From the IMG/VR virus record IMGVR_UViG_2778261382_000003: DNA of 18,906 nucleotides; one strand, given 5' to 3'. The position numbers and the translations under genes are program-made. This stretch comes from a virus (taxonomy: Duplodnaviria; Heunggongvirae; Uroviricota; Caudoviricetes). The notes beneath the pieces are model-generated. The model ran no database searches, was not told the origin of the DNA, and worked only from the letters and a program-made list of their open reading frames with translations. This document shows, piece by piece, positions 6,762-18,906 of the stretch (position 1 is the first letter of the stretch; the number at the start of each line of letters is the position of its first letter).

Positions 6762-7844
6762 ATGAAAAAATTAACAGTGGCAATTTCTGCTGTAGCTGCA
6801 TCAGTACTGATGGCGATGTCTGCTCAGGCAGCTGAAATTTATAATAAAGACAGTAACAAGCTGGATCTATACGGGAAAGTTAATGCCAAGCACTACTTCT
6901 CCTCTAATGATGCAGATGATGGTGATACTACTTATGCCCGTCTTGGCTTCAAAGGTGAAACCCAAATCAACGATCAACTGACTGGTTTCGGTCAGTGGGA
7001 ATATGAATTCAAAGGCAACCGTGCTGAATCTCAAGGTTCTTCCAAAGACAAAACCCGTCTTGCATTTGCAGGCCTGAAATTTGGTGATTACGGCTCAATC
7101 GATTACGGCCGTAACTACGGTGTAGCATACGACATCGGTGCGTGGACTGACGTCCTGCCAGAATTCGGTGGTGATACCTGGACCCAAACAGATGTGTTCA
7201 TGACTGGTCGCACTACTGGTGTTGCAACTTATCGTAACAACGACTTCTTTGGTCTGGTCGATGGCCTGAACTTTGCTGCTCAGTATCAGGGTAAAAATGA
7301 CCGCACTGACGTAACTGAAGCCAATGGTGATGGTTTCGGTTTCTCCACTACTTATGAGTATGAAGGATTCGGCGTGGGTGCAACCTATGCTAAATCAGAT
7401 CGCACTGACGGTCAGGTCGCCTATGGTAAGAGCAAATTCAATGCCTCCGGCAAAAATGCGGAAGTATGGGCTGCAGGCCTGAAATATGATGCGAACAATA
7501 TCTATCTGGCTACCACATATTCTGAAACTCAGAATATGACCGTTTTTGGTAATAACCATATTGCAAACAAAGCACAAAACTTTGAAGCAGTAGCACAATA
7601 TCAGTTTGACTTCGGTCTGCGACCATCTGTTGCTTACCTTCAGTCAAAAGGTAAAGACCTTGGTGTTCATGGTGACCGAGACTTAGTCAAGTATGTCGAT
7701 GTCGGTGCTACTTACTACTTTAATAAAAACATGTCCACTTTTGTTGATTACAAAATCAACTTAATTGACGATAGTAAGTTTACCAAAACAGCTGGTATTG
7801 ATACCGACGACATCGTCGCTGTAGGTCTGGTTTATCAGTTCTAA
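6762..7844 (+). CDS. nmpC: OmpC/OmpF-family general porin (phage Lc / NmpC-type), lysogenic-conversion moron
   Basis: 360 aa with signal peptide [23 protein letters not shown], mature start [18 protein letters not shown]-terminal ..VAVGLVYQF (terminal Phe), classic enterobacterial 16-strand porin features. Sits between Q and the holin on the opposite strand, as in DLP12 and PA-2. A long AT-rich leader lies upstream (6340-6760). Confidence 0.95.
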
Positions 7845-9184: not shown

Positions 9185-9347
9185 GATTCCTCCTTGCTGC
9201 CAGTCGCAACCATTTTTTATCAACCAGGCTGGCGGTATATCCGAGCAGTGTTGGTATTTCGGAAGGCTTCAGCTCAGGTTTACGCTTACGACGATTTGGT
9301 ACTCTGTAAATGTGCCCGTTCATGACACGAATAAGCGGTGTAGCCAT
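9177..9347 (-). CDS. ninE: NinE
   Basis: 56-aa ORF translated by hand, absent from the track because it is under 60 aa: [59 protein letters not shown] at 9345-9347 overlaps the ybcN stop; its 3' end overlaps the ybcO start. Confidence 0.75.
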   Translation of the reverse strand: MATPLIRVMNGHIYRVPNRRKRKPELKPSEIPTLLGYTASLVDKKWLRLAARRNHG

Positions 9348-9802
9348 TACGCCTCCTGCTTGTCACGGAGCAGCTGGAACTCGCAGCTCTGCGGAATAGT
9401 CAGGTGGCAGCCAATATTCACCGCCCAGGCTTCAACCTTACACAGGAAGACATACATCTCTCCGGTATCAAGATCGGAGGTATGGCGTAACGACTGGATA
9501 GTGGTGATATCACCGGTTACGACATCAACCAGGTCTTTGGTTTCATAACCGAGATATGTGTGTTTGAGAGCATCTTTTACCCAAGCTGGAGTGGCGAACG
9601 TTTTACCCCTGTTGATGAGGTATTCACTGATTTCGCTGTACCACATGTGGCTGAGTGCATTCTGGGAAAGACTGCGTTTCTCACGCCACGGTTTAAGCAC
9701 CATGCGAAAGCATTTGCCCTCCTCCAGATAAGGCTGGATCTGCTGACCGATAGCAGTGAAGTTACCACGATGCAATTTGATGCCGTCTTGTGGGAGGTTC
9801 AC
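9347..9802 (-). CDS. ybcN: YbcN-like nin-region protein (DUF1367)
   Basis: 151 aa. GTG start at 9800-9802 with SD ggagg 7 nt upstream. First gene of a tightly overlapping ybcN-ninE-ybcO-rusA block, the gene order of DLP12-type nin regions. Confidence 0.8.
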
Positions 9803-9829
9803 GCTTCACCTCCGCAGAGGTCAAACGCT

Positions 9830-9951
9830 GGATGCAAAAAATCGCAGGTGCATCTCTGCATCTGTGAAGGGAGAAGAGAGTTTGGATTGTATGTGCGCAT
9901 AAACGTCCCCGTTTAGCGCAGAAGTCACCGGAGTTGTTCAAGCTCCAATGG
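9830..9951. repeat. Direct repeat copy A (~120 bp), immediately upstream of ybcN
   Basis: 9830-9934 aligns to 11764-11868 with 7 mismatches in 105 bp; weaker similarity continues to 9951/11885. Contains an imperfect hairpin (gcgcataaacg tccc cgtttagcgc, plus-strand orientation) and an A/T run. On the minus strand it encodes a 35-aa ORF from GTG at 9926-9928. Confidence 0.85.
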
Positions 9952-9996
9952 CATGATTATGGCTGGTTGATTATTGGAAATCAAATGTGCTGAAAA

Positions 9997-10506
9997 TTAG
10001 TCTGCCAAGTCTTCCTCAGTCGCAACTGGGTAATTCCAAATATCAAAAAAAGCTATAGCCTCCTGCCATTTGCTCCATAAGTTATCAAGTACTTGTGTAG
10101 GTTCCGTACTTTTAAAAACAGAATCAGCCGCATCACCGTTATGAACTTCCTCGTACAGTTCCATTATTAGCAGATTAACAAAGTACTGTTTCAACATTAA
10201 TGCCTGATTACCTTCTTTCTGCTGGCTATCCTGCTTGATGATCTCCATCGCCCGTACTAGGCACCTGATGATATCCGCTGCATCATTAACGCTCCATTCA
10301 GATCCGCGCTTATCTTTAGCTGATGAATTGGCTCTCTCAGCGCAAGCCTTTAAAGACTCATAAAGGTAAACTCTATTATGTAGCTGCAGCGCTTTTTTTG
10401 ACGTGTACCAACTTGCAAGCGCCGACCCCGCTGCGGCTAATGTGCCAAACGCAGAAATGCCTGCTGCTATTGCACTTAAGTCGGCACTGTCAAAGTTCCA
10501 CATCAT
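9997..10506 (-). CDS. Hypothetical membrane-anchored protein (169 aa, one N-terminal TM helix)
   Basis: ATG ATG start at 10501-10506 with SD (aaggtg). N-terminus SADLSAIAAGISAFGTLAAAGSALASWY is hydrophobic. Own AT-rich promoter region upstream (10507-10680). No family recognised. Confidence 0.6.
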   Translation of the reverse strand: MMWNFDSADLSAIAAGISAFGTLAAAGSALASWYTSKKALQLHNRVYLYESLKACAERANSSAKDKRGSEWSVNDAADIIRCLVRAMEIIKQDSQQKEGNQALMLKQYFVNLLIMELYEEVHNGDAADSVFKSTEPTQVLDNLWSKWQEAIAFFDIWNYPVATEEDLAD

Positions 10507-10680
10507 CGTTACACCTTATATAAACACCCCTCAGTAATATCCAATAAGGTATGTGAACAATCAATATAATTTATATCCGTATCGGCACATAGCGATTTTA
10601 ATGCTACTGATAATGGTATCTTTTAGATTATATCGTCCAGTTCCAGTACCCGTATTTTATGAAATGGACTCGCACATTAC

Positions 10681-10722
10681 CAAAAAAAATGCCAGCACTT
10701 CCGTCATCGCAGAATGCTGGCA
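10681..10722 (-). terminator. Putative rho-independent terminator (minus strand) after the Bro-N gene
   Basis: Stem gccagca / tgctggc (10691-10697 and 10715-10721). On the minus strand it is followed by eight T (plus-strand A-run 10682-10689). Confidence 0.5.
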
Positions 10723-10741
10723 GTATTTCTAACTAGTGACT

Positions 10742-11350
10742 TTATTGCAACAGATTCTGACGGAAATATGGTAACACACGACTCCACTTATCATCCTGCC
10801 ACGGTTGGAATTTTACATGCGCCGTTTCTCTGGCAAGGATTTCTCGCGCCCTGTTGAGTATCCGAGGATATTCTTGTTCGATTGAAGTGAATCTACCTGC
10901 TTCGCGATGCTCTGCGACCTGAAGAAGGGGCGTAACGTTCTGGCAGGCGGTTAACATCGTATCACTTGCTCGCCATAACCAGGCGAGTGTGCAAAGTTCG
11001 TTATCAGTGAATTGTTTTGTGATTGGGGATTGTTGAACTTCTCGATCGAGAATATCCAGAACCCAGCGGCGGAATTCTTTGGCCACAGGAGTACGAGCAA
11101 ACATGGCGATCAAATGGGCTCCGCGAAGGCTAAATACTCGAGACTCCTGCATTCCACGAGGGGTGGTCACTTTGACCACCCTTGTCATCATATCTGTGAA
11201 TTCATCTGAGTGCCGAGAGTAAATGCGCTGAACTGCTTTATCGTCCGCATATTCCAGTGCTAAACCAACTTCAGTGGCAGTAAGCCAAATTCTGTTATTG
11301 TGGCAAATCGGGGTAAACGTCGTTTTGTGGAATGCTAATTGAGTAGTCAT
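10742..11350 (-). CDS. Bro-N domain protein (prophage antirepressor-like), 202 aa
   Basis: N-terminal region FTPICHNNRIWLTATEVGLALEYAD...VFSLRGAHLIAMFARTPVAKEFRRWVLDILDREV matches the Bro-N / KilA-N-like pattern (..AkeFr.Wv...) from memory. Flanked by its own promoter region and terminator. Confidence 0.7.
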   Translation of the reverse strand: MTTQLAFHKTTFTPICHNNRIWLTATEVGLALEYADDKAVQRIYSRHSDEFTDMMTRVVKVTTPRGMQESRVFSLRGAHLIAMFARTPVAKEFRRWVLDILDREVQQSPITKQFTDNELCTLAWLWRASDTMLTACQNVTPLLQVAEHREAGRFTSIEQEYPRILNRAREILARETAHVKFQPWQDDKWSRVLPYFRQNLLQ

Positions 11351-11505
11351 AGTATCACCTCATCAGGTTAACCATCACCACCAACGACGCCAATCGACTG
11401 GTGGTGAACTGTGTAAGGTTGGCGTAACCGGCTACTCAAACCCGGCGCTTCCGAAGAAGCCCTCACACAGCCCACCATAATTTGGGCATAGCCGTGCTTA
11501 GCGCA

Positions 11506-11527
11506 CAAAAAAACCGCTTAACGCGGT
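11506..11527 (-). terminator. Putative small rho-independent terminator (minus strand)
   Basis: Minus strand: accgc-gttaa-gcggt followed by seven T (plus-strand a7 at 11507-11513). Lies about 90 bp downstream of the 82-aa ORF. Confidence 0.4.
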
Positions 11528-11613
11528 ATGCGTTGAGTAGTATCCCGGGACGCCAATCCCGTGTGCCGATTTTGCGGCAACGCACAGAATATAGCGCCGG
11601 ATAAATCATGTCG

Positions 11614-11862
11614 TCAACCCCAGTAAATGGACACCATGATGATCACAGCCATAGCTGCTACAACAGTTACAACTACCTCAGGCCAAAACATAACGATTTC
11701 CATATCACCTTTAGCCGCCAGACGAATAGAGACTCCCAATTCTGGCTGTCGAAGTAAAACACCGAATGTAAAAAATCGTAGGTGCATTTCTGCATCTGTG
11801 AATGGAGATGAGAGTTTGGATTGTGTGTGCGCATAAACGTCCCCGTTTAGCGCAGAAGTCAC
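11614..11862 (-). CDS. Hypothetical small protein (82 aa, C-terminal hydrophobic segment); N-terminal 31 codons lie inside repeat copy B
   Basis: GTG start at 11860-11862; C-terminus IVMFWPEVVVTVVAAMAVIIMVSIYWG is hydrophobic. Its first 31 codons are shared with a 35-aa ORF in repeat copy A, differing by 4 synonymous and 1 non-synonymous changes. Weak RBS; coding status uncertain. Confidence 0.3.
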   Translation of the reverse strand: MTSALNGDVYAHTQSKLSSPFTDAEMHLRFFTFGVLLRQPELGVSIRLAAKGDMEIVMFWPEVVVTVVAAMAVIIMVSIYWG

Positions 11863-11885
11863 CGGAGTTTTTTAGGCTCCGATGA
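11764..11885. repeat. Direct repeat copy B (~120 bp)
   Basis: See copy A; 93 percent identity over 105 bp, same orientation, 1934 bp offset. Confidence 0.85.
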
Positions 11886-11981
11886 CAATATTATGGCTTT
11901 TTTATTTCTAAATTCAAAACTTGAAAATATTAAGATTCGCTTTTAAATCAACCCTAAACAACTGAAGATAACATCTGATAG

Positions 11982-12941
11982 TCAGCTAATTGCAAAGATA
12001 TTAAAAATAACTTTAGGGAGTGCGAAAGATGAAATAAAAAGCACAACCATAAAAATGGCATGCTTAATAAATGATGAGCTTGTAAAAAAAGCTCCTCCCT
12101 TGCTAATTCCTGCCATAAAAACAAAGATAAAGCTAATTAAGCACGACCATATCACTAACAAAACTGAGATTGACATGCTTAAAGACATATCGCGAGAAAA
12201 TACGTTTACTGAAATAGAAATGAAAGTAAAGAAAGAAGCAAATAAAGCAATGACACCCAGCATTGAGTTCCTTGCTGTAATTACTTCCGATTCAAAGCTT
12301 TTAACTTTCTCATGTATATCTTTTTCAGCATTTGATAATGTTGCATCAAATTGCTCAATCTTTGCAGTTTGCTGAGATAATGAAGACATTACCTTACCTA
12401 TTTTTCTTTTAGTATCATTAATATTCTTTTTGCTCTTATTCAACTCTTGCGAAAAATTGGTTAGTTGATCATTGATATTTTTCCAGAGGATGTTATCAAT
12501 ATCACTTTTTGTATATTTTTTTACATTCTCTTTATTAAAAGAAATTGTAGATTCAGAATTATTATTAACAAAGTAATTAGATAAAATGGCATTAGAGACA
12601 GTATTATCCATCACCGGCACAGTTGCTTTTGAACTGTATTTTATAGCTTCATGCAACATTTCTTTTTCATTAACAAAAAGAGAGGTTTTTATTAATTTTT
12701 GTGGTGCCGCGTCTTTGATGGATATACTTTCCCGCTCTTTATTTGAAGCTGTTGCAGTTTTATTATCTATCTGCAAATTACTAATTTTTTGTACCCCTCC
12801 TGTATACGTAGATGTACTATTCGATACTTGTGAATTAGAATAAAGTGAATGATGCGCAGTTCTTTTTGCCATGTCATCGTTGACTATAGCATTATTTTTT
12901 GCAGTTCTTTTTATATCCTTTTTATTATCATCCTTATTCAT
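11982..12941 (-). CDS. Hypothetical protein, 319 aa: low-complexity Ser/Thr/Asn-rich N-terminus, predicted helical / coiled-coil middle, about three C-terminal transmembrane helices; candidate membrane effector of a defence / exclusion module
   Basis: ATG at 12939-12941 with good SD (gaggtgg), 14 nt after the stop of the upstream gene. C-terminal hydrophobic segments MLGVIALFASFFTFISISVNVF, ISVLLVIWSCLISFIFVFMAGI, AIFMVVLFISSFALPKVIFNIFAI. About 27-30 percent GC against about 50 percent in flanking phage genes. Confidence 0.7.
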   Translation of the reverse strand: MNKDDNKKDIKRTAKNNAIVNDDMAKRTAHHSLYSNSQVSNSTSTYTGGVQKISNLQIDNKTATASNKERESISIKDAAPQKLIKTSLFVNEKEMLHEAIKYSSKATVPVMDNTVSNAILSNYFVNNNSESTISFNKENVKKYTKSDIDNILWKNINDQLTNFSQELNKSKKNINDTKRKIGKVMSSLSQQTAKIEQFDATLSNAEKDIHEKVKSFESEVITARNSMLGVIALFASFFTFISISVNVFSRDMSLSMSISVLLVIWSCLISFIFVFMAGISKGGAFFTSSSFIKHAIFMVVLFISSFALPKVIFNIFAIS

Positions 12942-12955
12942 TCAGCCACCTCACA

Positions 12956-13621
12956 TTACTGAATTTCATTCACTTTACTTAAAAAGGCTTTTTTTGTTTT
13001 TTCTGCGGTATATTTATCTTTAAATATAAAACTCTCGATTGTATTCACATCGATCTGTTTCACTAGCATTGGTTGTTCTCTGACAATATCATATCCTGAC
13101 ATAATCGACAAATGACAATTAAATATGGACTGCTCAAACTCGAATTTTTTATTATACATTAAATTAATATCTTCAATTATTTCGCTATCATTCTGCATGT
13201 TGTTACTAAGATAGTTTTTAACAATCTCTTTGTTTGGGTTGTTGTTTAATTCCGCCTTAACGGCCACCAAGCCTATTCTGATAATATCCTTATTGAGTTC
13301 TTTATGGATATCAACCACACTATCGAAAACTTCTTGAAACAAATGTAAGTCTACCTCTTGCTCAGAATCCATACGTTCAAAAAACAAATCACATCTCTGC
13401 AGTGAGCATTGAACTCTAAATTTATTATCTATAGAAAACAATTGGAGACGAGGAATCTCTGGTGGGGTATCCATAGGTAAAACGCCCAACATCATATTGT
13501 TTGTTAATTCAATACCTGCCTTCTTTTTAAAAGTTTGCCTAATAAAATACGACATTCCATCGAAATCGACAGTCGTTGATGAATCGTAAAAAAATACCAT
13601 TTGTAACTGTATGATTTTCAT
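12956..13621 (-). CDS. Hypothetical soluble protein, 221 aa; first gene of the AT-rich two-gene operon (candidate sensor / partner)
   Basis: ATG at 13619-13621, 152 bp after the P stop with an AT-rich promoter-like region between. Very AT-rich codon usage. No recognised motif. Confidence 0.7.
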   Translation of the reverse strand: MKIIQLQMVFFYDSSTTVDFDGMSYFIRQTFKKKAGIELTNNMMLGVLPMDTPPEIPRLQLFSIDNKFRVQCSLQRCDLFFERMDSEQEVDLHLFQEVFDSVVDIHKELNKDIIRIGLVAVKAELNNNPNKEIVKNYLSNNMQNDSEIIEDINLMYNKKFEFEQSIFNCHLSIMSGYDIVREQPMLVKQIDVNTIESFIFKDKYTAEKTKKAFLSKVNEIQ

Positions 13622-13773: not shown

Positions 13774-14496
13774 TTATTTCGAAATCTTTTTATATAATGC
13801 TTTTCCCCCTTTCAGCCCAAACTTAGCTTTGATTTCTGCGATCTTCGCCAGAGCCTGTGCACGATTTAGAGGCCTACCGCCCATGACAGGAAGTTGTTTT
13901 ACTGGTTCAGGTATCGCCTCACCACGGTTAATTCGCGCGGTCATACAGGTCAGCTCATCGGCAGCCTTGCGCCGTAATTCCGCGTCAGTCAACGCATTGG
14001 CCCGCATGTTCTGATACAGGTTGGTAACCAGCCAGTAGTGCGCGTTTGATTTCCACGGATAAGACTCTGCATCCGGATACAGCCCGCGCTTCCGGCAATA
14101 CTCGTAAACCATATCAACCAGCTCGCTGGCGTTTGGCAGCCCGGCGGTAACGGATGCTTCTTCCCGGCACCAGGCGACAAACTGCCCGGGTGATGGCAGG
14201 AATGGTCGATTCTGCCGACGGGCTACGCGCATTCCAGCGTTAACCTGTTCCATTGTGGTGATCCCGTTTTCCCGAAAAGCCAGCACCCACTGGCGGCGGA
14301 TTTCGTTCAGTTCATTCTGGTCACAGTTAGCCAGGCTCGCCGGGAAAGTTGCCAGTAACTGGCTGAACACACCGTTGATGATCTGCGCTACCTGCTGTAC
14401 CTGCGGCTTTTCGTCGTACTGTTCCGGCATGTTGTTGGCGATCCGACGCATCTGCTCACGGTCAAAGTTAACCATCTGTGCGGCGATGTTTTTCAT
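13774..14496 (-). CDS. P: Replication protein P (lambda P-like DnaB helicase loader)
   Basis: MKNIAAQMVNFDREQMRRIANNMPEQYDEKPQVQQVAQIINGVFSQ... is near-identical to lambda P over most of its length. ATG (14494-14496) overlaps the O stop (ATGA). The last ~10 residues (..KFGLKGGKALYKKISK) differ from lambda P as I recall it (..KFGLKGASV). Confidence 0.9.
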   Translation of the reverse strand: MKNIAAQMVNFDREQMRRIANNMPEQYDEKPQVQQVAQIINGVFSQLLATFPASLANCDQNELNEIRRQWVLAFRENGITTMEQVNAGMRVARRQNRPFLPSPGQFVAWCREEASVTAGLPNASELVDMVYEYCRKRGLYPDAESYPWKSNAHYWLVTNLYQNMRANALTDAELRRKAADELTCMTARINRGEAIPEPVKQLPVMGGRPLNRAQALAKIAEIKAKFGLKGGKALYKKISK

Positions 14497-15422
14497 AAAT
14501 CCACCCCGCAAATCCAGTCAGTGTTTGTCAGGTCGAGTTTTGGTTTTCTGGCTATCATGCCTGCCTGTTGCTTGTTACGGTTGATTTCGAGTTGGGTCCA
14601 CTTGTCGCGGAGTTTGGCCGGACTTAGCACGTTACCGGACCAGAAGTTGTCCTGGCATGCCCAGCGGAACAGCACGCACATGTCGCGGTGGTTACGTCCG
14701 TCACGTTCACGCATCAGGCGGATATCGTTAGCCCACCCTGCAAAATTCGGTTTTCTGGCTGATGGCGCGATGGTCTTCACCATGTCAAACATCCACTCTG
14801 CGGCGGTCAGGTCTTCTGCTGTCCCCCACTTGCTGCCGCTCTGAATTGCAGCATCCGGTTTCACCACAGGAAGATCGTTTTCTGGTTGGTCAGAGGATTC
14901 GCCAGAATTCTCGGACGAAAAAGGTTTTATATTGTCTTTTGTTAGTTTGTCTTTTGTGTTTACCTGATTCGGGTAAACGCCTTTACCTGATTTGGGTAAA
15001 CTTTTTTTACCTGATTCAGGTAAATTTACCTCTTTCAGGTAAACTTTATTTTTCTTACCTGATTCGGGTAATGTTGACCATTCACTGACCACATTATTAA
15101 TGCCGGTATTCCGCCCGCTCTGAATAAAAATCCCACGCTTTACCAGAACACTTTTTGCAGCAGAACACTTGTGCGGCAATATCCCGGTTAATTCGGAAAG
15201 TTGCTCGTTGCTAACCCAATCCAGTTTTTTATTAAAGCCATATGTTTTGCGCATGACAGCCAGAAAGACCAGAAGCTGGTGCTGTGTTAATCCGGCCAGC
15301 ATCACAGCTTCCAGCAACTCATTTGCAATGCGCGTATAACCATCATCGAGATCTGCCACGCGCGGCTCCTTTTGTGCCGCATCCGGCACTGGAAAATTGA
15401 ATATCTCAGCAGTGTTTGCCAT
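14493..15422 (-). CDS. O: Replication initiator O (lambda O-like; divergent N-terminal iteron-binding domain, lambda-like C-terminal domain)
   Basis: Start at ATG 15420-15422 with strong SD (gggagga); the track ORF starts farther upstream. The C-terminal two-thirds (..LPESGKKNKVYLKEVNLPESGKKSLPKSGKGVYPNQ...WTQLEINRNKQQAG..KPKLDLTNTDWI.GVDL) is essentially lambda O from memory; the N-terminal ~110 aa are clearly different. Confidence 0.9.
   Translation of the reverse strand: MANTAEIFNFPVPDAAQKEPRVADLDDGYTRIANELLEAVMLAGLTQHQLLVFLAVMRKTYGFNKKLDWVSNEQLSELTGILPHKCSAAKSVLVKRGIFIQSGRNTGINNVVSEWSTLPESGKKNKVYLKEVNLPESGKKSLPKSGKGVYPNQVNTKDKLTKDNIKPFSSENSGESSDQPENDLPVVKPDAAIQSGSKWGTAEDLTAAEWMFDMVKTIAPSARKPNFAGWANDIRLMRERDGRNHRDMCVLFRWACQDNFWSGNVLSPAKLRDKWTQLEINRNKQQAGMIARKPKLDLTNTDWICGVDL
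14960..15071. repeat. Origin of replication iterons (ori) inside the O gene
   Basis: Five copies of a 17-bp inverted-repeat unit ttacc-N7-ggtaa (ttacctgattcgggtaa at 14960 and 15055, variants at 14983, 15007, 15026). AT-rich stretch adjacent at about 14900-14959. They encode the O linker, as the lambda ori does. Confidence 0.75.
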
Positions 15423-15508
15423 AATTCCTCCCGCAATGAGTGTGTTACGATTTGCACCTGAAAGTCGGTTCTGTTCCAGCAGACCGGCTTTCGCCATTTC
15501 TGAACCTG

Positions 15509-15931
15509 TCATATCGCCCCCAGCATGGTAGTAACCATCGCCATCAATGGACCAGCCAGATCCGGGTCCACACGAAACATCGACACAATACCTTCACTAA
15601 TTTCCTTCAATTTCTGGTGGCGTGGTGCGTTGAGAATGACAGCCTGTTTTGCCTCACTGAGTTCCTTTTCCATTTCAGCCAACCTAGCCATGAAGCTATC
15701 CTGCTCAACCAGGTGGCCGCGATATTCCAGCGGTAGTACCGCCAGAATTGCCGGGGTCAGTTCACGCACGTTATTTCGGTATTTTTCAGAATCGAATTTG
15801 TTATCGAGGAAGCGGAACAGCTTCTGGCGTGCCCGACTGACATCATCAGGAAAATCGATGGTGACGCCGCCCTGTGCTCGATACTCATTCACAATGAGTG
15901 CGGCAACGACATCCTGATTAGGCGCGATCAC
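15509..15931 (-). CDS. Hypothetical protein in the cII position (about 141 aa; possibly a YdaT/CII-like regulator)
   Basis: The track ORF (15509-16051) begins at a GTG that would overlap the divergent gene at 16046. The internal GTG at 15929-15931 with SD (ggag) is the more plausible start. No lambda CII similarity; the YdaT-like suggestion comes from position and length only. Confidence 0.45.
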   Translation of the reverse strand: MIAPNQDVVAALIVNEYRAQGGVTIDFPDDVSRARQKLFRFLDNKFDSEKYRNNVRELTPAILAVLPLEYRGHLVEQDSFMARLAEMEKELSEAKQAVILNAPRHQKLKEISEGIVSMFRVDPDLAGPLMAMVTTMLGAI

Positions 15932-16045: not shown

Positions 16046-16237
16046 ATGCACAAAGCATCTCCTGTTGAGTTAAGAACGAGTATTGAGATGGCACATAGCC
16101 TTGCTCAAATTGGAGTCAGGTTTGTGCCAATACCAGTAGAAACAGACGAAGAATTTCATACGTTAGCCACATCCCTTTCACAAAAGCTGGAAATGATGGT
16201 GGCGAAAGCAGAAGCAGATGAGAGAGACCAGGTATGA
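16046..16237 (+). CDS. Hypothetical small protein (63 aa), first gene of the leftward early operon remnant
   Basis: ATG at 16046 with strong SD (gggagg, 6 nt upstream). No HTH evident, so not obviously a repressor. Confidence 0.5.
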   Translation: MHKASPVELRTSIEMAHSLAQIGVRFVPIPVETDEEFHTLATSLSQKLEMMVAKAEADERDQV

Positions 16238-16247
16238 CAACCACTGA

Positions 16248-16529
16248 ATGCATTTTTCTGGCAGCGGGCTTCATATTCTGTGTGCTTATGCTTGCCGACA
16301 TGGGGCTTGTTCAGTGACACCTCAGCAAGAAAACGCCCTTCGCAGCATTGCCCGTCAGGCTAATTCTGAAATCAAAAAAGCCAGACAGCAGTTTCCGGAT
16401 AAAAACGTCGATGACATTTGCCGTAGCGTACTGAAGAAGCACCGCGAAACAGTAACGCTGATGGGATTCACACCGACTCATTTAAGCCTAGCGATCGGCA
16501 TGTTAAACGGCGTCTTTAAGGAACGGTGA
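16248..16529 (+). CDS. Hypothetical protein (93-aa ORF; alternatively a 27-aa hydrophobic peptide at 16234-16317 plus a 72-aa protein from GTG 16314)
   Basis: The ATG at 16248 has no SD. An ATG at 16234 overlaps the upstream stop (ATGA) and opens a 27-codon ORF, MTTTECIFLAAGFIFCVLMLADMGLVQ, whose stop overlaps an in-frame GTG (GTGA) of the downstream frame. The gene model is ambiguous. Confidence 0.4.
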   Translation: MHFSGSGLHILCAYACRHGACSVTPQQENALRSIARQANSEIKKARQQFPDKNVDDICRSVLKKHRETVTLMGFTPTHLSLAIGMLNGVFKER

Positions 16530-16550
16530 ACATGAAAAGCAAAATCATCA

Positions 16551-16576
16551 GGGAGCTACAGGCTCCTTTTTTATTG
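16551..16576 (+). terminator. Putative rho-independent terminator (plus strand)
   Basis: Stem ggagc / gctcc with loop tacag, followed by ttttttatt. Confidence 0.4.
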
Positions 16577-16627
16577 TTCGCATTCACCCTCAAGCGTATT
16601 AACCAACAGTTCAGGGATTAATGAAAG

Positions 16628-16849
16628 ATGGCAGACATCATTGATTCAGCATCAGAAATAGAAGAATTACAGCGCAACACAGCAATAAAAATGCGCCGCC
16701 TGAACTACCTGGCTGTATCTGCCACTCATTGTTGTGAGTGTGGCGATCCGATAGATGAACGAAGACGACTGGCCGTTCAGGGTTGTCGGACTTGCGCCAG
16801 TTGCCAGCAAGATCTGGAGCTTATCCGCAAACAAAGGGGGATGAAGTGA
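16628..16849 (+). CDS. TraR/DksA-family C4-type zinc-finger protein (73 aa)
   Basis: Four Cys as CxxC-(17)-CxxC (CCECGDPIDERRRLAVQGCRTCASC) in a ~70-aa protein, the typical phage TraR-like architecture. Confidence 0.7.
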   Translation: MADIIDSASEIEELQRNTAIKMRRLNYLAVSATHCCECGDPIDERRRLAVQGCRTCASCQQDLELIRKQRGMK

Positions 16850-17181
16850 TGGCTAACCTGCAACTTGCTGTTAAAAGTGAATACTTCGATGCCATGATTC
16901 GCGGAGAGAAAACGGAAGAGTATCGCTTGTGTAATGACTACTGGAATAAGCGAATTATGTTCCGGGAATATGACCGCCTGATTATCACAAAGGGATATCC
17001 GAAGCGCGACGATTCCAGTCGCAGAATTGATGTTCCGTATGACGGATATGAAGTGAAGACAATCACACATCCGCACTTTGGCGATAAACCGGTAAAGGTG
17101 TTCGCTATAAAGGTGAATATCACCACTGAATATCAATCCGCACAACACAAGGTCAAGAATGTTCAGAGTGATTTACCCTAA
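16849..17181 (+). CDS. ASCH-like domain protein (110 aa)
   Basis: ATG at 16849-16851 overlaps the upstream stop. N-terminus LQLAVKSEYFDAMIRGEKTEEYR resembles the start of ASCH/PUA-like domains; assignment from motif memory only. Confidence 0.5.
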   Translation: MANLQLAVKSEYFDAMIRGEKTEEYRLCNDYWNKRIMFREYDRLIITKGYPKRDDSSRRIDVPYDGYEVKTITHPHFGDKPVKVFAIKVNITTEYQSAQHKVKNVQSDLP

Positions 17182-17398
17182 CACCTGGTACGTCGACCAC
17201 CACGGCACTCCCTGCAAAATCCTGCGTTCTACCCATAACAAAGTTCACTACATCCGAAAAGGCAGAACATGTATCGCCAGCATGTTCCGCTTTAATCATG
17301 ACTTTGAACCTGTGAATAAAGCTGATGCAGATCGGATAGCAGAAGAGATCGAAACGGCAGAACACATTAAGAAGTTACGTGCCATACGCAGGAAATAG
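17159..17398 (+). CDS. Hypothetical small basic protein (79 aa)
   Basis: ATG at 17159 with SD (aagg). Overlaps the previous gene by 23 nt in another frame. Family unknown. Confidence 0.45.
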   Translation: MFRVIYPNTWYVDHHGTPCKILRSTHNKVHYIRKGRTCIASMFRFNHDFEPVNKADADRIAEEIETAEHIKKLRAIRRK

Positions 17399-17537
17399 AA
17401 AAATTGATAAATTCAATACTGCATTTCTCAGCATTAAATTTATCTCTATGACCAGTCATGAGATGTACCTGCCATGAGCTTAATATCATGTCAGATATAT
17501 CGGTCACAAACTCCCTCAGCAGCTAAGAGGAGGACAA

Positions 17538-17774
17538 ATGTCTCGACTAATCACTTTACAGGACTGGGCTAAAGAAGAATTTGGGGACTTAGCACCAAGT
17601 GAGCGAGTTCTGAAAAAATACGCGCAAGGGAAAATGATGGCCCCACCAGCTATAAAAGTTGGTCGCTACTGGATGATTGACCGAAATTCCCGTTTTGTAG
17701 GAACGCTTGCAGAACCGCAACTCCCAATAAACGCAAACCCAAAACTCCAACGGATAATCGCTGATGGCTGCTAG
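17538..17774 (+). CDS. xis: Putative excisionase
   Basis: 78-aa protein directly upstream of int with a 11-nt overlap. Very strong SD (taagaggagg). Call is by position and size; no strong sequence match to lambda Xis. Confidence 0.6.
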   Translation: MSRLITLQDWAKEEFGDLAPSERVLKKYAQGKMMAPPAIKVGRYWMIDRNSRFVGTLAEPQLPINANPKLQRIIADGC

Positions 17775-18906
17775 ACCCCGATCTCACAAAATCTCTATAC
17801 CCAATTTATATTGCAAATTAGATAAGCGAACCGGAAAGGTATATTGGCAATACAAACATCCACTATCCGGTCGTTTTCATAGCTTAGGAACTGATGAGAA
17901 TGAAGCAAAACAAGTTGCTACTGAAGCAAATACCATTATTGCTGAACAACGTACCCGACAAATATTAAGCGTCAATGAGCGTCTGGAAAGAATGAAAGGC
18001 AGGCGCTCAGACATTACGGTGACAGAATGGCTTGATAAATATATTTCTATCCAGGAGGACAGGCTGCAACATAATGAACTAAGACCCAACTCCTATCGGC
18101 AAAAAGGCAAACCCATTCGTCTTTTCCGTGAGCATTGTGGAATGCAACACCTCAAGGATATTACCGCACTTGATATTGCCGAAATAATTGATGCTGTAAA
18201 GGCTGAAGGTCATAACAGGATGGCGCAAGTCGTGAGAATGGTGTTAATCGACGTCTTCAAAGAAGCACAACACGCAGGACATGTTCCGCCAGGATTTAAC
18301 CCAGCGCAGGCAACAAAACAACCGCGAAATCGAGTAAACCGCCAAAGATTATCACTGCCCGAATGGCAGGCAATATTTGACAGCGTAAGCAGACGGCAGC
18401 CCTATTTAAAATGCGGGATGCTACTTGCTCTTGTCACTGGACAACGTTTAGGCGATATCTGCAATTTGAAATTCTCTGATATCTGGGACGACATGTTGCA
18501 CATTACTCAGGAAAAAACCGGTTCAAAACTTGCTATTCCGCTTAACCTGAAATGCGATGCTCTGAATATTACCCTTCGTGAAGTTATATCTCAGTGCAGG
18601 GATGCTGTTGTTAGTAAATATCTGGTCCATTACCGTCACACAACCTCTCAAGCAAACAGAGGAGACCAGGTTTCTGCGAATACTCTGACAACGGCTTTTA
18701 AAAAGGCCAGGGAAAAATGTGGCATAAAATGGGAGCAAGGAACTGCGCCCACATTTCATGAGCAGCGATCTCTGTCAGAACGGTTATATCGGGAACAGGG
18801 TCTGGATACGCAAAAGTTGTTAGGCCATAAATCCAGAAAAATGACCGACCGATACAATGATGATCGTGGTAAAGACTGGATTATCGTAGATATCAAAACA
18901 GCATAG
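17764..18906 (+). CDS. int: Lambda-family tyrosine integrase
   Basis: 380 aa. N-terminal arm-binding-like region (RPRSHKISIPNLYCKLDKRTGKVYWQYKHPLSG) and C-terminal catalytic motifs (..LALVTGQRLGDICNLKFSDI.., ..FHEQRSLSERLY.., ..LLGHKSRKMTDRYNDDRG..) align with lambda Int from memory. Complete ORF ending at the last base of the window. Confidence 0.9.
   Translation: MAARPRSHKISIPNLYCKLDKRTGKVYWQYKHPLSGRFHSLGTDENEAKQVATEANTIIAEQRTRQILSVNERLERMKGRRSDITVTEWLDKYISIQEDRLQHNELRPNSYRQKGKPIRLFREHCGMQHLKDITALDIAEIIDAVKAEGHNRMAQVVRMVLIDVFKEAQHAGHVPPGFNPAQATKQPRNRVNRQRLSLPEWQAIFDSVSRRQPYLKCGMLLALVTGQRLGDICNLKFSDIWDDMLHITQEKTGSKLAIPLNLKCDALNITLREVISQCRDAVVSKYLVHYRHTTSQANRGDQVSANTLTTAFKKAREKCGIKWEQGTAPTFHEQRSLSERLYREQGLDTQKLLGHKSRKMTDRYNDDRGKDWIIVDIKTA

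Follow-up and report, generated by a model that had tools for sequence, protein, structure and literature searches.

A widespread, portable leader unit with covarying RNA hairpins heads gene blocks in lambdoid nin regions

The stretch of DNA analysed here, 18,906 nucleotides of the IMG/VR record IMGVR_UViG_2778261382_000003 (the window), is a lambdoid prophage with its early-right and late genes on the minus strand. In the direction of transcription the order is the O gene with its iterons (14493-15512), P, two open reading frames (ORFs) of unknown function, a first repeat copy (copy B), small ORFs, an IsrK-like RNA, a C4 RNA, an antirepressor gene with Bro-N and P22AR_C domains, an ORF of 169 amino acids, a second repeat copy (copy A), then ybcN, ninE, ybcO, rusA and Q, a porin gene on the plus strand, and finally holin, lysozyme and Rz. 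Copy A (9817-9972) and copy B (11751-11906) form the only long direct pair in a repeat scan, 156 nucleotides long and 86.5% identical with 21 mismatches by count, and the match of copy B to copy A is well beyond chance (blastn E = 1e-48). Each copy is one instance of a widespread, portable regulatory leader unit of lambdoid nin regions, about 170 nucleotides long and read on the minus strand. Features described below are on the minus strand of the window unless a plus sign is given.

A sequence-only reading of this DNA had drawn attention to the pair, and our recount of its mismatches between 9830-9934 and 11764-11868 gives exactly the 7 in 105 nucleotides that it reported. The similarity thus stands, but its true reach on the high-coordinate side is longer than described and extends up to a promoter-like -35 sequence. 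Also as described, each copy lies upstream of a gene block. Copy A adjoins ybcN (9347-9802), an Orf/NinB-family gene and the first of the nin block (followed by ninE, ybcO, rusA and Q), and copy B stands before small ORFs and the Bro-N/P22AR_C gene (10742-11350).

The unit was found in 2884 of 5426 complete E. coli genomes and in 29 phage records, and a scan of one genome per species found it in eight enterobacterial genera (Enterobacter, Citrobacter, Lelliottia, Trabulsiella, Huaxiibacter, Scandinavium, Pseudescherichia and Escherichia). In the K-12 prophage DLP12 it fills the spacer between ybcM and ybcN and carries a coding sequence for 33 amino acids, which an exact-sequence look-up identifies as UniProt YLCH_ECOLI. 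It lies directly 5' of a ybcN/ninB-type gene in HK639, HK225, phi80, Klebsiella phage KO-TP1 and Enterobacter phages, and overall the blocks that it heads are of the YbcN type, the NinB type, the antirepressor cassette, a 66-amino-acid ORF with RusA, and DUF1367. Copy A is 90-92% identical to K-12 and phage 82 (X92588 positions 49-235) over 156-169 nucleotides, and with the covariance model described below copies A and B score 146.9 and 140.8 bits.

To date this locus has been described only as hypothetical ylcH/orf33, preceded by a putative promoter. The phage 82 record X92588 already marks, before orf151/ybcN, a putative -35 and -10, a 'possible regulator-binding site' that corresponds to our hairpin H1, a ribosome-binding site and orf33, and in the phi80 record our hairpin H2 is annotated as inverted repeat IR4. 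Rfam searches with the unit returned nothing, whether with the gathering threshold or with E<=10; it therefore belongs to no curated family such as AgvB, AsxR, Esr41, STnc100, IsrK or C4, and its sequence is not in the AgvB, Pas and EcOnc literature or supplements. What goes beyond existing annotation is the covarying four-hairpin RNA, a hairpin that masks a Shine-Dalgarno sequence, the lack of selection on the leader peptide, the copy that heads a cassette, and a sister lineage.

Hairpins H1, H2 and H3 are backed by compensatory substitution

From its predicted 5' end, copy A carries hairpin H1 (9926-9950), with a stem of 8 base pairs and in this copy the loop cUUGAACAa, then a conserved linker ACUUCU (9920-9925), then hairpin H2 (9895-9919; GCGCUAAACG-GGGA-CGUUUA(U)GCGC), whose GGGA loop is Shine-Dalgarno-like and whose 3' arm holds the AUG of a leader ORF. 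These are followed by a C-rich, G-free, unstructured spacer (9865-9894, with 12 C and no G in 30 nucleotides) and, inside the leader ORF, by a weak terminator-like element (9836-9864) that consists of hairpin H3 (9845-9864), which includes an A.C mismatch, and the run AUUUUUU (9836-9842). Folding shows the same hairpins in A and B, as the sequence-only reading had said of the one it noticed.

We tested the structure in two ways, by folding each distinct variant singly, without an alignment, and with a covariance model from 14 ungapped seeds that aligned 99 copies (75 distinct). In a MAFFT alignment the stems are mis-registered between sequence types, so column-based covariation on it was set aside. 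Folded singly, about 39 of 42 distinct H1 sequences fold alike, with at least 10 fully compensated stems under the conserved loop cCUGAACAa, and all 14 distinct H2 sequences fold, with at least six compensated stems under the GGGA loop. In the covariance-model alignment 98.8% of the cells are paired and 21 of the 26 pairs change on both sides (179 cells), including 7 of the 8 pairs in H1 and 10 of the 11 in H2. None of 500 shuffles reached any of the measures from this alignment, and partner columns that were slid out of register pair in only 18-44% of cases. RNAalifold, run on the same alignment without a supplied structure, returned the same three helices, with 19 of 22 pairs compensated. 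Folding and covariance analysis across homologues thus found a structure that is both conserved and covarying. G.U pairs are frequent, with U.G the commonest type at one H1 position, which identifies the RNA as the one read on the minus strand of the window.

Most copies have the same H3 sequence. A sample collected without regard to H3 contained a compensated variant, in which UGCA-GAAA-UGCA becomes UGCU-UAAC-GGCA, and a distant Citrobacter copy keeps the geometry (((.((((....)))).))), including the A.C mismatch and the CGAUUUUCU that follows, with a different sequence. The folding energy of H3 ranges from -4.4 to -10 kcal/mol, and of the two window copies a terminator scan picks out only A. 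Most lineages have an interrupted U-run and one locus (L137) has a deletion of it, yet it recurs in the sister lineage. In the full-length fold the U-run can pair back to AUGCAGAGA, competing with H3. In all types, the stretch that separates H2 from H3 is rich in C and almost free of G. Enterobacter sp. BIGb0383 (NZ_RJKQ01000002.1; L144:5403-6361) has a CRISPR array of 16 repeats GGTTTATCCCCGCTGGCGCGGGGAACAC with a 61-nucleotide period, and one of its spacers, TTGTCACAGATGCAGAAATGCACCTGCGATTTC, equals the unit's invariant block of H3 and U-run, so in this case a host targets the conserved phage sequence.

Following up a lower-scoring covariance-model hit in Citrobacter (39 bits), we found a second lineage, which is abundant and comprises at least 120 viral contigs. 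Members of this sister lineage have the same H1 loop on other stems, the linker ACCUGCU, and an H2 of the form UGCGCCA(..GGAG..)UGGCGCA, again with the AUG in the 3' arm, which makes the H1 loop the best-conserved feature across both lineages. Their first ORF is of three kinds: a leader ORF of 29-36 codons with an ATGA or GTGA overlap, followed by a 66-amino-acid ORF and RusA; a protein of 90-92 amino acids; or a DUF1367 protein. Several copies are preceded by a strong intrinsic terminator and a TACAAT or TGnTAnACT (extended -10) box, which supports H1 as the start of a transcription unit. Sister-lineage sites are on the IMG/VR contigs L286-L405 and at L137:5308-5418. Some members seem to have the leader ORF joined to the downstream one, as a single ORF of 92 amino acids (KSDWFQH vs MKKSWFQH).

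The leader reading frame, the masked start and the promoter-like sequence

In copy A the leader ORF (9799-9900; 33 codons plus stop) is a homologue of K-12 ylcH and phage 82 orf33, and its stop overlaps the GTG of ybcN in the sequence GTGA. The sequence-only reading missed this annotated small ORF, which starts at ATG 9900 and uses a different frame from the GTG ORF that it proposed instead. We examined 94 unique units for the ORF in the ylcH frame. It opens within the 3' arm of H2 and is 29-37 codons long; its start codon is AUG or, in some lineages, GUG, placed identically in the structure, and the stop overlaps the next start (GTGA or ATGA) in about 88 of the units. An independent sample anchored on H2 has the ORF open in 97 of 99 cases and the overlap in 95 of 98 tails. 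The indels that distinguish types keep the frame: one, in the spacer, has 3 nucleotides, and another, the L137 deletion that removes the U-run, has 6.

The sequence of the leader peptide is not under selection, in any frame. In the ylcH frame the numbers of variable columns at the three codon positions are 11/12/11 in 38 unique E. coli-type copies and 17/18/15 in 76 copies of the other main type, and the synonymous fraction is 0.27-0.29, with 0.21-0.24 expected. Relative to the conserved nucleotides CACAAUC..AACUC, the frame of codons 3-11 differs between the two main types, and the compensatory variant of H3 turns QKC into LNG in the peptide.

A fourth hairpin, H4 (9801-9828), lies in the final codons of the leader ORF and masks the Shine-Dalgarno sequence and start of ybcN or ninB; in copy A it buries the ybcN Shine-Dalgarno sequence (GGAGG) and the first bases of the GTG. 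We found three versions, GCGUUUgACCUC(UGCG)GAGGUgAAGCGU, GCGUUACCUC(UCG)GAGGUGGCGU and GCGGUUUCC(GUUAA)GGAGGCCGU, which are mutually compensated and have energies of -12 to -19 kcal/mol, and at least 75% of the Shine-Dalgarno bases are paired in 76 of 88 distinct tails. A ribosome-binding site masked within a leader ORF, a stop that overlaps the next start, and an ORF that is kept without selection on its peptide are together the textbook signature of obligatory translational coupling.

At its other end the unit is headed by a sigma-70-like promoter sequence. In copy A the putative -35 hexamer TTGATT (9979-9984) and the -10 hexamer CATAAT (9956-9961) are 17 nucleotides apart, and an operator-like palindrome TTGATT-N6-AATCAA (9967-9984) overlaps the -35. 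The -10 lies 6-8 nucleotides before the first paired base of H1, so H1 would be the 5' end of the transcript, with a predicted start at about 9950. We surveyed 202 unique units anchored on the H1 loop, scoring TTGAnn, a spacing of 16-18 nucleotides and nAnnnT with a cut-off of at least 9 of 12, which 163 units reached. Of these, 149 have TTGATT as the -35, 146 have CATAAT as the -10, and 156 have a spacer of exactly 17 nucleotides. The palindrome TTGAT-N8-ATCA is present in 172 of the 202 units with its right half in the promoter spacer, a position that suggests an operator. The 30 nucleotides upstream of the -35 comprise 106 unrelated sequences among the 202 units, so the unit starts sharply at the promoter-like sequence. 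A palindrome search for a second operator site within the window, for example at a late promoter, gave only copy A and one chance site. The half-sites TTGAT/ATCAA match those of FNR, but we rejected FNR as the binder because the spacing is N8 and not N4; the FNR-like half-sites and the microaerobic rise of ylcH RNA reported below may coincide by chance, or may hint at a regulator that responds to oxygen.

The antirepressor cassette and its own copy of the unit

The features of copy B follow those of copy A with several departures. Its promoter-like site (11890-11917) is TTGAAT-16-CATAAT and its palindrome is degenerate, the loop of its H1 (11860-11884) is mutated to CCUAAAAAAC, its H2 (11829-11853) is identical to that of copy A, and its H3 with AUUUUUU (11770-11798) is weakened by a G>A change to -4.4 kcal/mol. 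The leader ORF of copy B (11673-11834) has 53 codons; in other cassette subtypes it has 46 codons and a UGAUG overlap with a peptide ORF. That ORF encodes a hydrophobic peptide of 29 amino acids (11614-11703, beginning MEIVMFWPEVVV), which is the C-terminal part of an 82-amino-acid ORF. Next come an IsrK-family RNA (RF01394; 11507-11579; 58.7 bits), a C4 antisense RNA (RF01695; 11397-11482; 74.8 bits), the antirepressor-type protein with Bro-N and P22AR_C, and a variable cargo protein of 169 amino acids (9997-10506; PHROG 1779, function unknown).

The sequence-only reading took the interval between the copies to be a 1.8-kb cassette, perhaps a moron insertion. It is indeed an accessory cassette that recurs as a block (1.9 kb), but the IsrK-like and C4 RNAs inside it had been missed, as had the existence of a widespread family of such units. 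All 12 two-copy loci share one layout: unit, hydrophobic-peptide ORF, IsrK-like RNA, C4 RNA, antirepressor, variable cargo, unit, ybcN. The upstream copies in these loci are complete units, with their own palindrome and -10 and with H1 on a different stem. Between loci, B copies share 94-100% identity, against 54-93% with the A copy of their own locus, so the cassette carries its own leader and the pair is neither a recent local duplication nor a target-site scar. At one locus (L056) the half with promoter and H1 is 99% identical between the two copies, and in a comparison of the window with PhiR26_1 the cassette and copy A are shared while copy B differs upstream of H2, which places a breakpoint between H1 and H2. 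As the sequence-only reading had suggested, the unit sits at module boundaries, with unrelated upstream flanks and breakpoints within it. Being common to otherwise unrelated modules, it is also a homology patch where phage mosaics join. The proposal of either a leader or a linker therefore holds in part: the unit is a leader and a mosaic joint, but the ORF proposed for it was the wrong one and no peptide is conserved.

Across cassette subtypes only the last 27-31 hydrophobic residues of the 82-amino-acid ORF (MEIVM[F/S]WP...) are conserved. PHROG 4612 (57 amino acids) matches residues 26-82 of this ORF, and the 57-residue model is probably an over-extended gene call. The 29-amino-acid peptide MEIVMFWPEVVVTVVAAMAVIIMVSIYWG is kept in every cassette subtype, and has a stop codon in five loci. 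In four of eight subtypes, and not in this window, the leader ORF ends in a UGAUG overlap with the internal AUG of the hydrophobic peptide. A search for a hairpin masking the Shine-Dalgarno sequence of this peptide in copy B gave folds that are not significant, and duplex energies between the unit and the cassette's C4 or IsrK RNA were no better than those of shuffled controls. We noted that in the region of the C4 and IsrK RNAs (11397-11594), directly upstream of the antirepressor, a sub-threshold c4-a1b1 match (39.6 bits, gathering threshold 46.7) overlaps the IsrK match, which suggests that IsrK corresponds to the a1/b1 part of P1-type immI control regions.

Elsewhere in the window, four TTTACCTGATTCGGGTAAAC-like iterons within the O gene (14955-15071) form the replication origin. 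The porin gene (6762-7844, +), OmpC/NmpC-like, lies on the opposite strand between Q and holin and is a classic lambdoid moron. Two ORFs of unknown function between P and copy B (11982-13621), of 319 amino acids (PHROG 25335) and 221 amino acids (PHROG 24110), sit where the otherwise near-identical PhiR26_1 and E. coli 118UI prophage have ren and a PD-lambda-1 defence gene, and are candidates for accessory or defence cargo. The integrase gene (17764-18906, +) adjoins cI-like, cro-like and YdaT genes (region 16100-18906), with no N or recombination region between them. With the left arm compact or deleted in this way, N-dependent readthrough of the nin region may be unavailable to this prophage.

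Gating of downstream genes and comparison with known systems

Published K-12 data show RNA from the unit. The ylcH RNA is listed alone, with ybcN not beside it, and is up by log2 2.03 (about 4-fold) microaerobically (PMC8910356). In Term-seq data (PMC7815308), 3' ends of sense-strand RNA appear under two conditions, at 572349 and 572350 (+), which map to the window equivalent of about 9919/9918 (-). These ends fall between CUCCGGUGACUUCUG and the following C, 7-8 nucleotides past the H1 stem and 19 nucleotides before the ylcH AUG, and could reflect termination, a pause or an exonuclease stop. The sequence there, GGUGACUUCU followed by G, fits the elemental pause consensus G-10 Y-1 G+1. The K-12 rusA gene is described, in the part of PMC4118853 that cites Mahdi et al., as inadequately expressed unless insertions bring a promoter. 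Taken together, the ylcH RNA, the internal 3' ends and the poorly expressed rusA show that the unit gives rise to RNA and that, in the cryptic prophage, little of either transcription or translation gets past it. This pattern is compatible with gating, and does not thereby establish its mechanism.

On balance we think it probable that the unit is a promoter-proximal leader that gates the downstream genes by translational coupling. In this model the unit would start its own transcript at about the first base of H1, and ribosomes would reach ybcN or ninB only by translating the leader ORF and melting H4. H2, by sequestering the leader AUG, would throttle leader translation and set how often coupling fires. 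Without translation of the leader, the C-rich spacer would be exposed along with H3 and its U-run, and intrinsic or Rho-dependent termination, that is, attenuation, may follow. The palindrome would be the operator for a repressor. Copy A would gate ybcN-ninE-ybcO-rusA-Q, and copy B would be a partly degenerate version of this device that a mobile cassette carries as its 5' end. We hold the attenuation and operator parts less firmly than the core of leader and coupling.

Several observations weigh against this interpretation. Within sequence types the absence of stops in the leader ORF is about what chance would give, so that the case for selection on the ORF comes from comparisons between types. 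The pair counts from the covariance-model alignment are somewhat inflated because that alignment was fitted to the structure. The U-run is eroded in many copies and gone in L137. Copy B as found here has neither H4 nor the stop/start overlap, and its mutated H1 loop, degenerate palindrome and weak H3 suggest that it may be decaying. The K-12 version of H3 has the U-run AAUUCUUU, and Term-seq lists no 3' end there; since the only mapped ends lie after H1, attenuation at H3 has no direct support from these data. Cappable-seq and SMRT-Cappable-seq tables have no entry near the predicted start, which is uninformative rather than negative. Finally, coupling gives the conserved H1 loop no role.

The unexplained invariance of the H1 loop leaves room for a more novel control system. 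In a reading that we regard as possible but rather doubtful, H1 with its invariant loop on changing stems and H2 with its GNRA-type GGGA loop and start region would form the recognition module of an unrecognised control system of many enterobacterial lambdoid phages, read by a conserved host or phage factor or by RNA polymerase and deciding entry into the nin/Q genes and the antirepressor cassette; a short RNA ending after H1 or at H3 may also act in trans. If this were true, the timing of the late switch would be decided at the unit.

It is unlikely, in our estimate, that the unit encodes a stand-alone, trans-acting small RNA of about 110 nucleotides, running from the promoter to H3 and the U-run with a single-stranded C/A-rich seed. 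The promoter-like site, the 5' hairpins, the unstructured C/A-rich stretch and the hairpin with U6 in both window copies would suit such an RNA, as would its multi-copy, prophage-borne nature, which recalls AgvB or Pas, and the listing of K-12 ylcH RNA without ybcN. However, the U-run is broken in most lineages, H3 is weak (-4 to -10 kcal/mol) and K-12 has no 3' end there, conservation runs past the supposed terminator into H4 and the NTGA overlap, the sister lineage has H1 and H2 directly before proteins of 92 and 200 amino acids, and even at E<=10 Rfam has nothing similar.

Also distinctly unlikely is a cis-acting RNA that modifies RNA polymerase, as put does, or recruits an antiterminator, as nut/boxB does, for readthrough of the nin terminators to Q. 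The two promoter-proximal hairpins would fit this, as would the position of the unit where lambda has tR2, the pause-like sequence at the K-12 3' ends just past H1, and the fact that HK639, a put phage, carries the unit. The H1 loop CCUGAAcAA also resembles lambda boxB, CCCUGAAAAAGGG. Yet the covariance model, run with filters off over the whole HK022 genome including its put sites, gave only hits with E>1. The stems are simple, in contrast to the bulged put stems with their triplex, boxA is lacking, the loop is invariant although the immunity regions of the carriers differ, and both the leader ORF and H4 would be left without explanation.

That the unit acts through the small protein YlcH/orf33 as its product is, in our view, very unlikely. 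More than 95% of the ybcN/ninB-linked units keep the ORF open, annotations of it exist in K-12, UniProt and phage 82, and the motif SQMQKCTCDFLH recurs, but the peptide shows no third-position bias or synonymous excess, the frame of codons 3-11 shifts between the two main types, the H3 variant alters the residues QKC to LNG, the leader peptides of the sister lineage are unrelated, and there is no protein family match.

Smaller still is the chance that the repeat has no function of its own and is just a linker or scar of recombination, or the product of a recent local duplication. The breakpoints inside the unit and the unrelated upstream flanks are what a linker would give, but the four hairpins are compensated, the loop is conserved, the NTGA overlap is kept across genera, and B copies travel with the cassette. 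A linker role is contradicted as the sole explanation and survives as a secondary one.

To the conserved peptide that the sequence-only reading proposed from its GTG ORFs, with divergence biased to synonymous sites, we give practically no credence. The ORFs are where it put them (from 9928, 35 amino acids, and from 11862, 82 amino acids) and PHROG 4612 does match part of the longer one; four of the five differences between A and B over the first 31 codons are indeed synonymous. With only five substitutions and three frames, this bias is not significant (about 0.1 by our estimate) and is put down to chance. The peptide is refuted by three observations: the distance from GTG to ATG is 28 nucleotides in one type and 29 in another, which shifts the register against the 3' block, stops or frameshifts interrupt the long frame in 3 of the 8 subtypes of copy-B-type units, and 38 unique ungapped E. 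coli-type copies show no periodicity (11/11/12, with a synonymous fraction of about 0.27 and 0.24 expected).

Returning to the leader with translational coupling, such a role explains why ylcH persists without conservation of its peptide. Q is the switch to late (lysis) gene expression and the antirepressor acts on prophage induction. The unit stands at the entry to the genes that lead to Q in over half of the complete E. coli genomes and also in many temperate phages that infect Klebsiella, Enterobacter and Citrobacter. It would be a handle on nin/Q and antirepressor gating that is independent of the classical N/tR2 route. It is also a clear example of a regulatory element that doubles as a homology patch for mosaicism and as a CRISPR target.

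Among described loci, ylcH of DLP12 and orf33 of phage 82 (X92588; Mahdi et al. 1996 according to the record) are the same locus and the same sequence family; copy A shares their type of stop/start overlap and copy B, with its 53 codons, does not. Like lambda tR2, the unit lies between the replication/ren genes and ninB, but tR2 is a plain, strong intrinsic terminator without a promoter, an ORF or 5' hairpins. The putative promoter of the unit, its short leader and its terminator-like hairpin before an operon recall lambda PR'-6S RNA-tR', and in the unit we identified no Q-binding or sigma-dependent pause element. The put RNAs of HK022 are likewise promoter-proximal, with two stem-loops in a phage early operon, but they have no match to the unit in sequence or structure, have long, bulged stems with a triplex, and lack a leader ORF. 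There is no boxA-like sequence in the unit, so it is not a nut site; H1 is at the predicted 5' end, and its loop would need a 2-nucleotide bulge to mimic boxB. With the prophage small RNAs AgvB, AsxR, Pas, IsrK and C4 it shares a prophage-borne, multi-copy nature and a 3' hairpin with a U-run, and IsrK and C4 are separate elements that lie between the two copies.

The literature on comparative genomics of HK97/HK022 and HK620 has the concept of lambdoid boundary or linker sequences, short conserved sequences between unrelated modules with breakpoints inside them. Unlike a plain linker, the unit is a selected regulatory RNA with a putative promoter, and its part in recombination would be a by-product. 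The best functional analogue, in our view, is coupling that depends on an upstream ORF, of the uof-fur type. In E. coli uof-fur, translation of a short leader ORF is needed to open the downstream gene and reinitiate there, the peptide is irrelevant, and initiation on the leader is the control point. As in that type, the leader stop of the unit overlaps the main start and the main ribosome-binding site is sequestered in a structure inside the leader ORF; unlike uof-fur, the unit also has a hairpin at the 5' end whose loop is conserved and, internally, a hairpin with a U-run.

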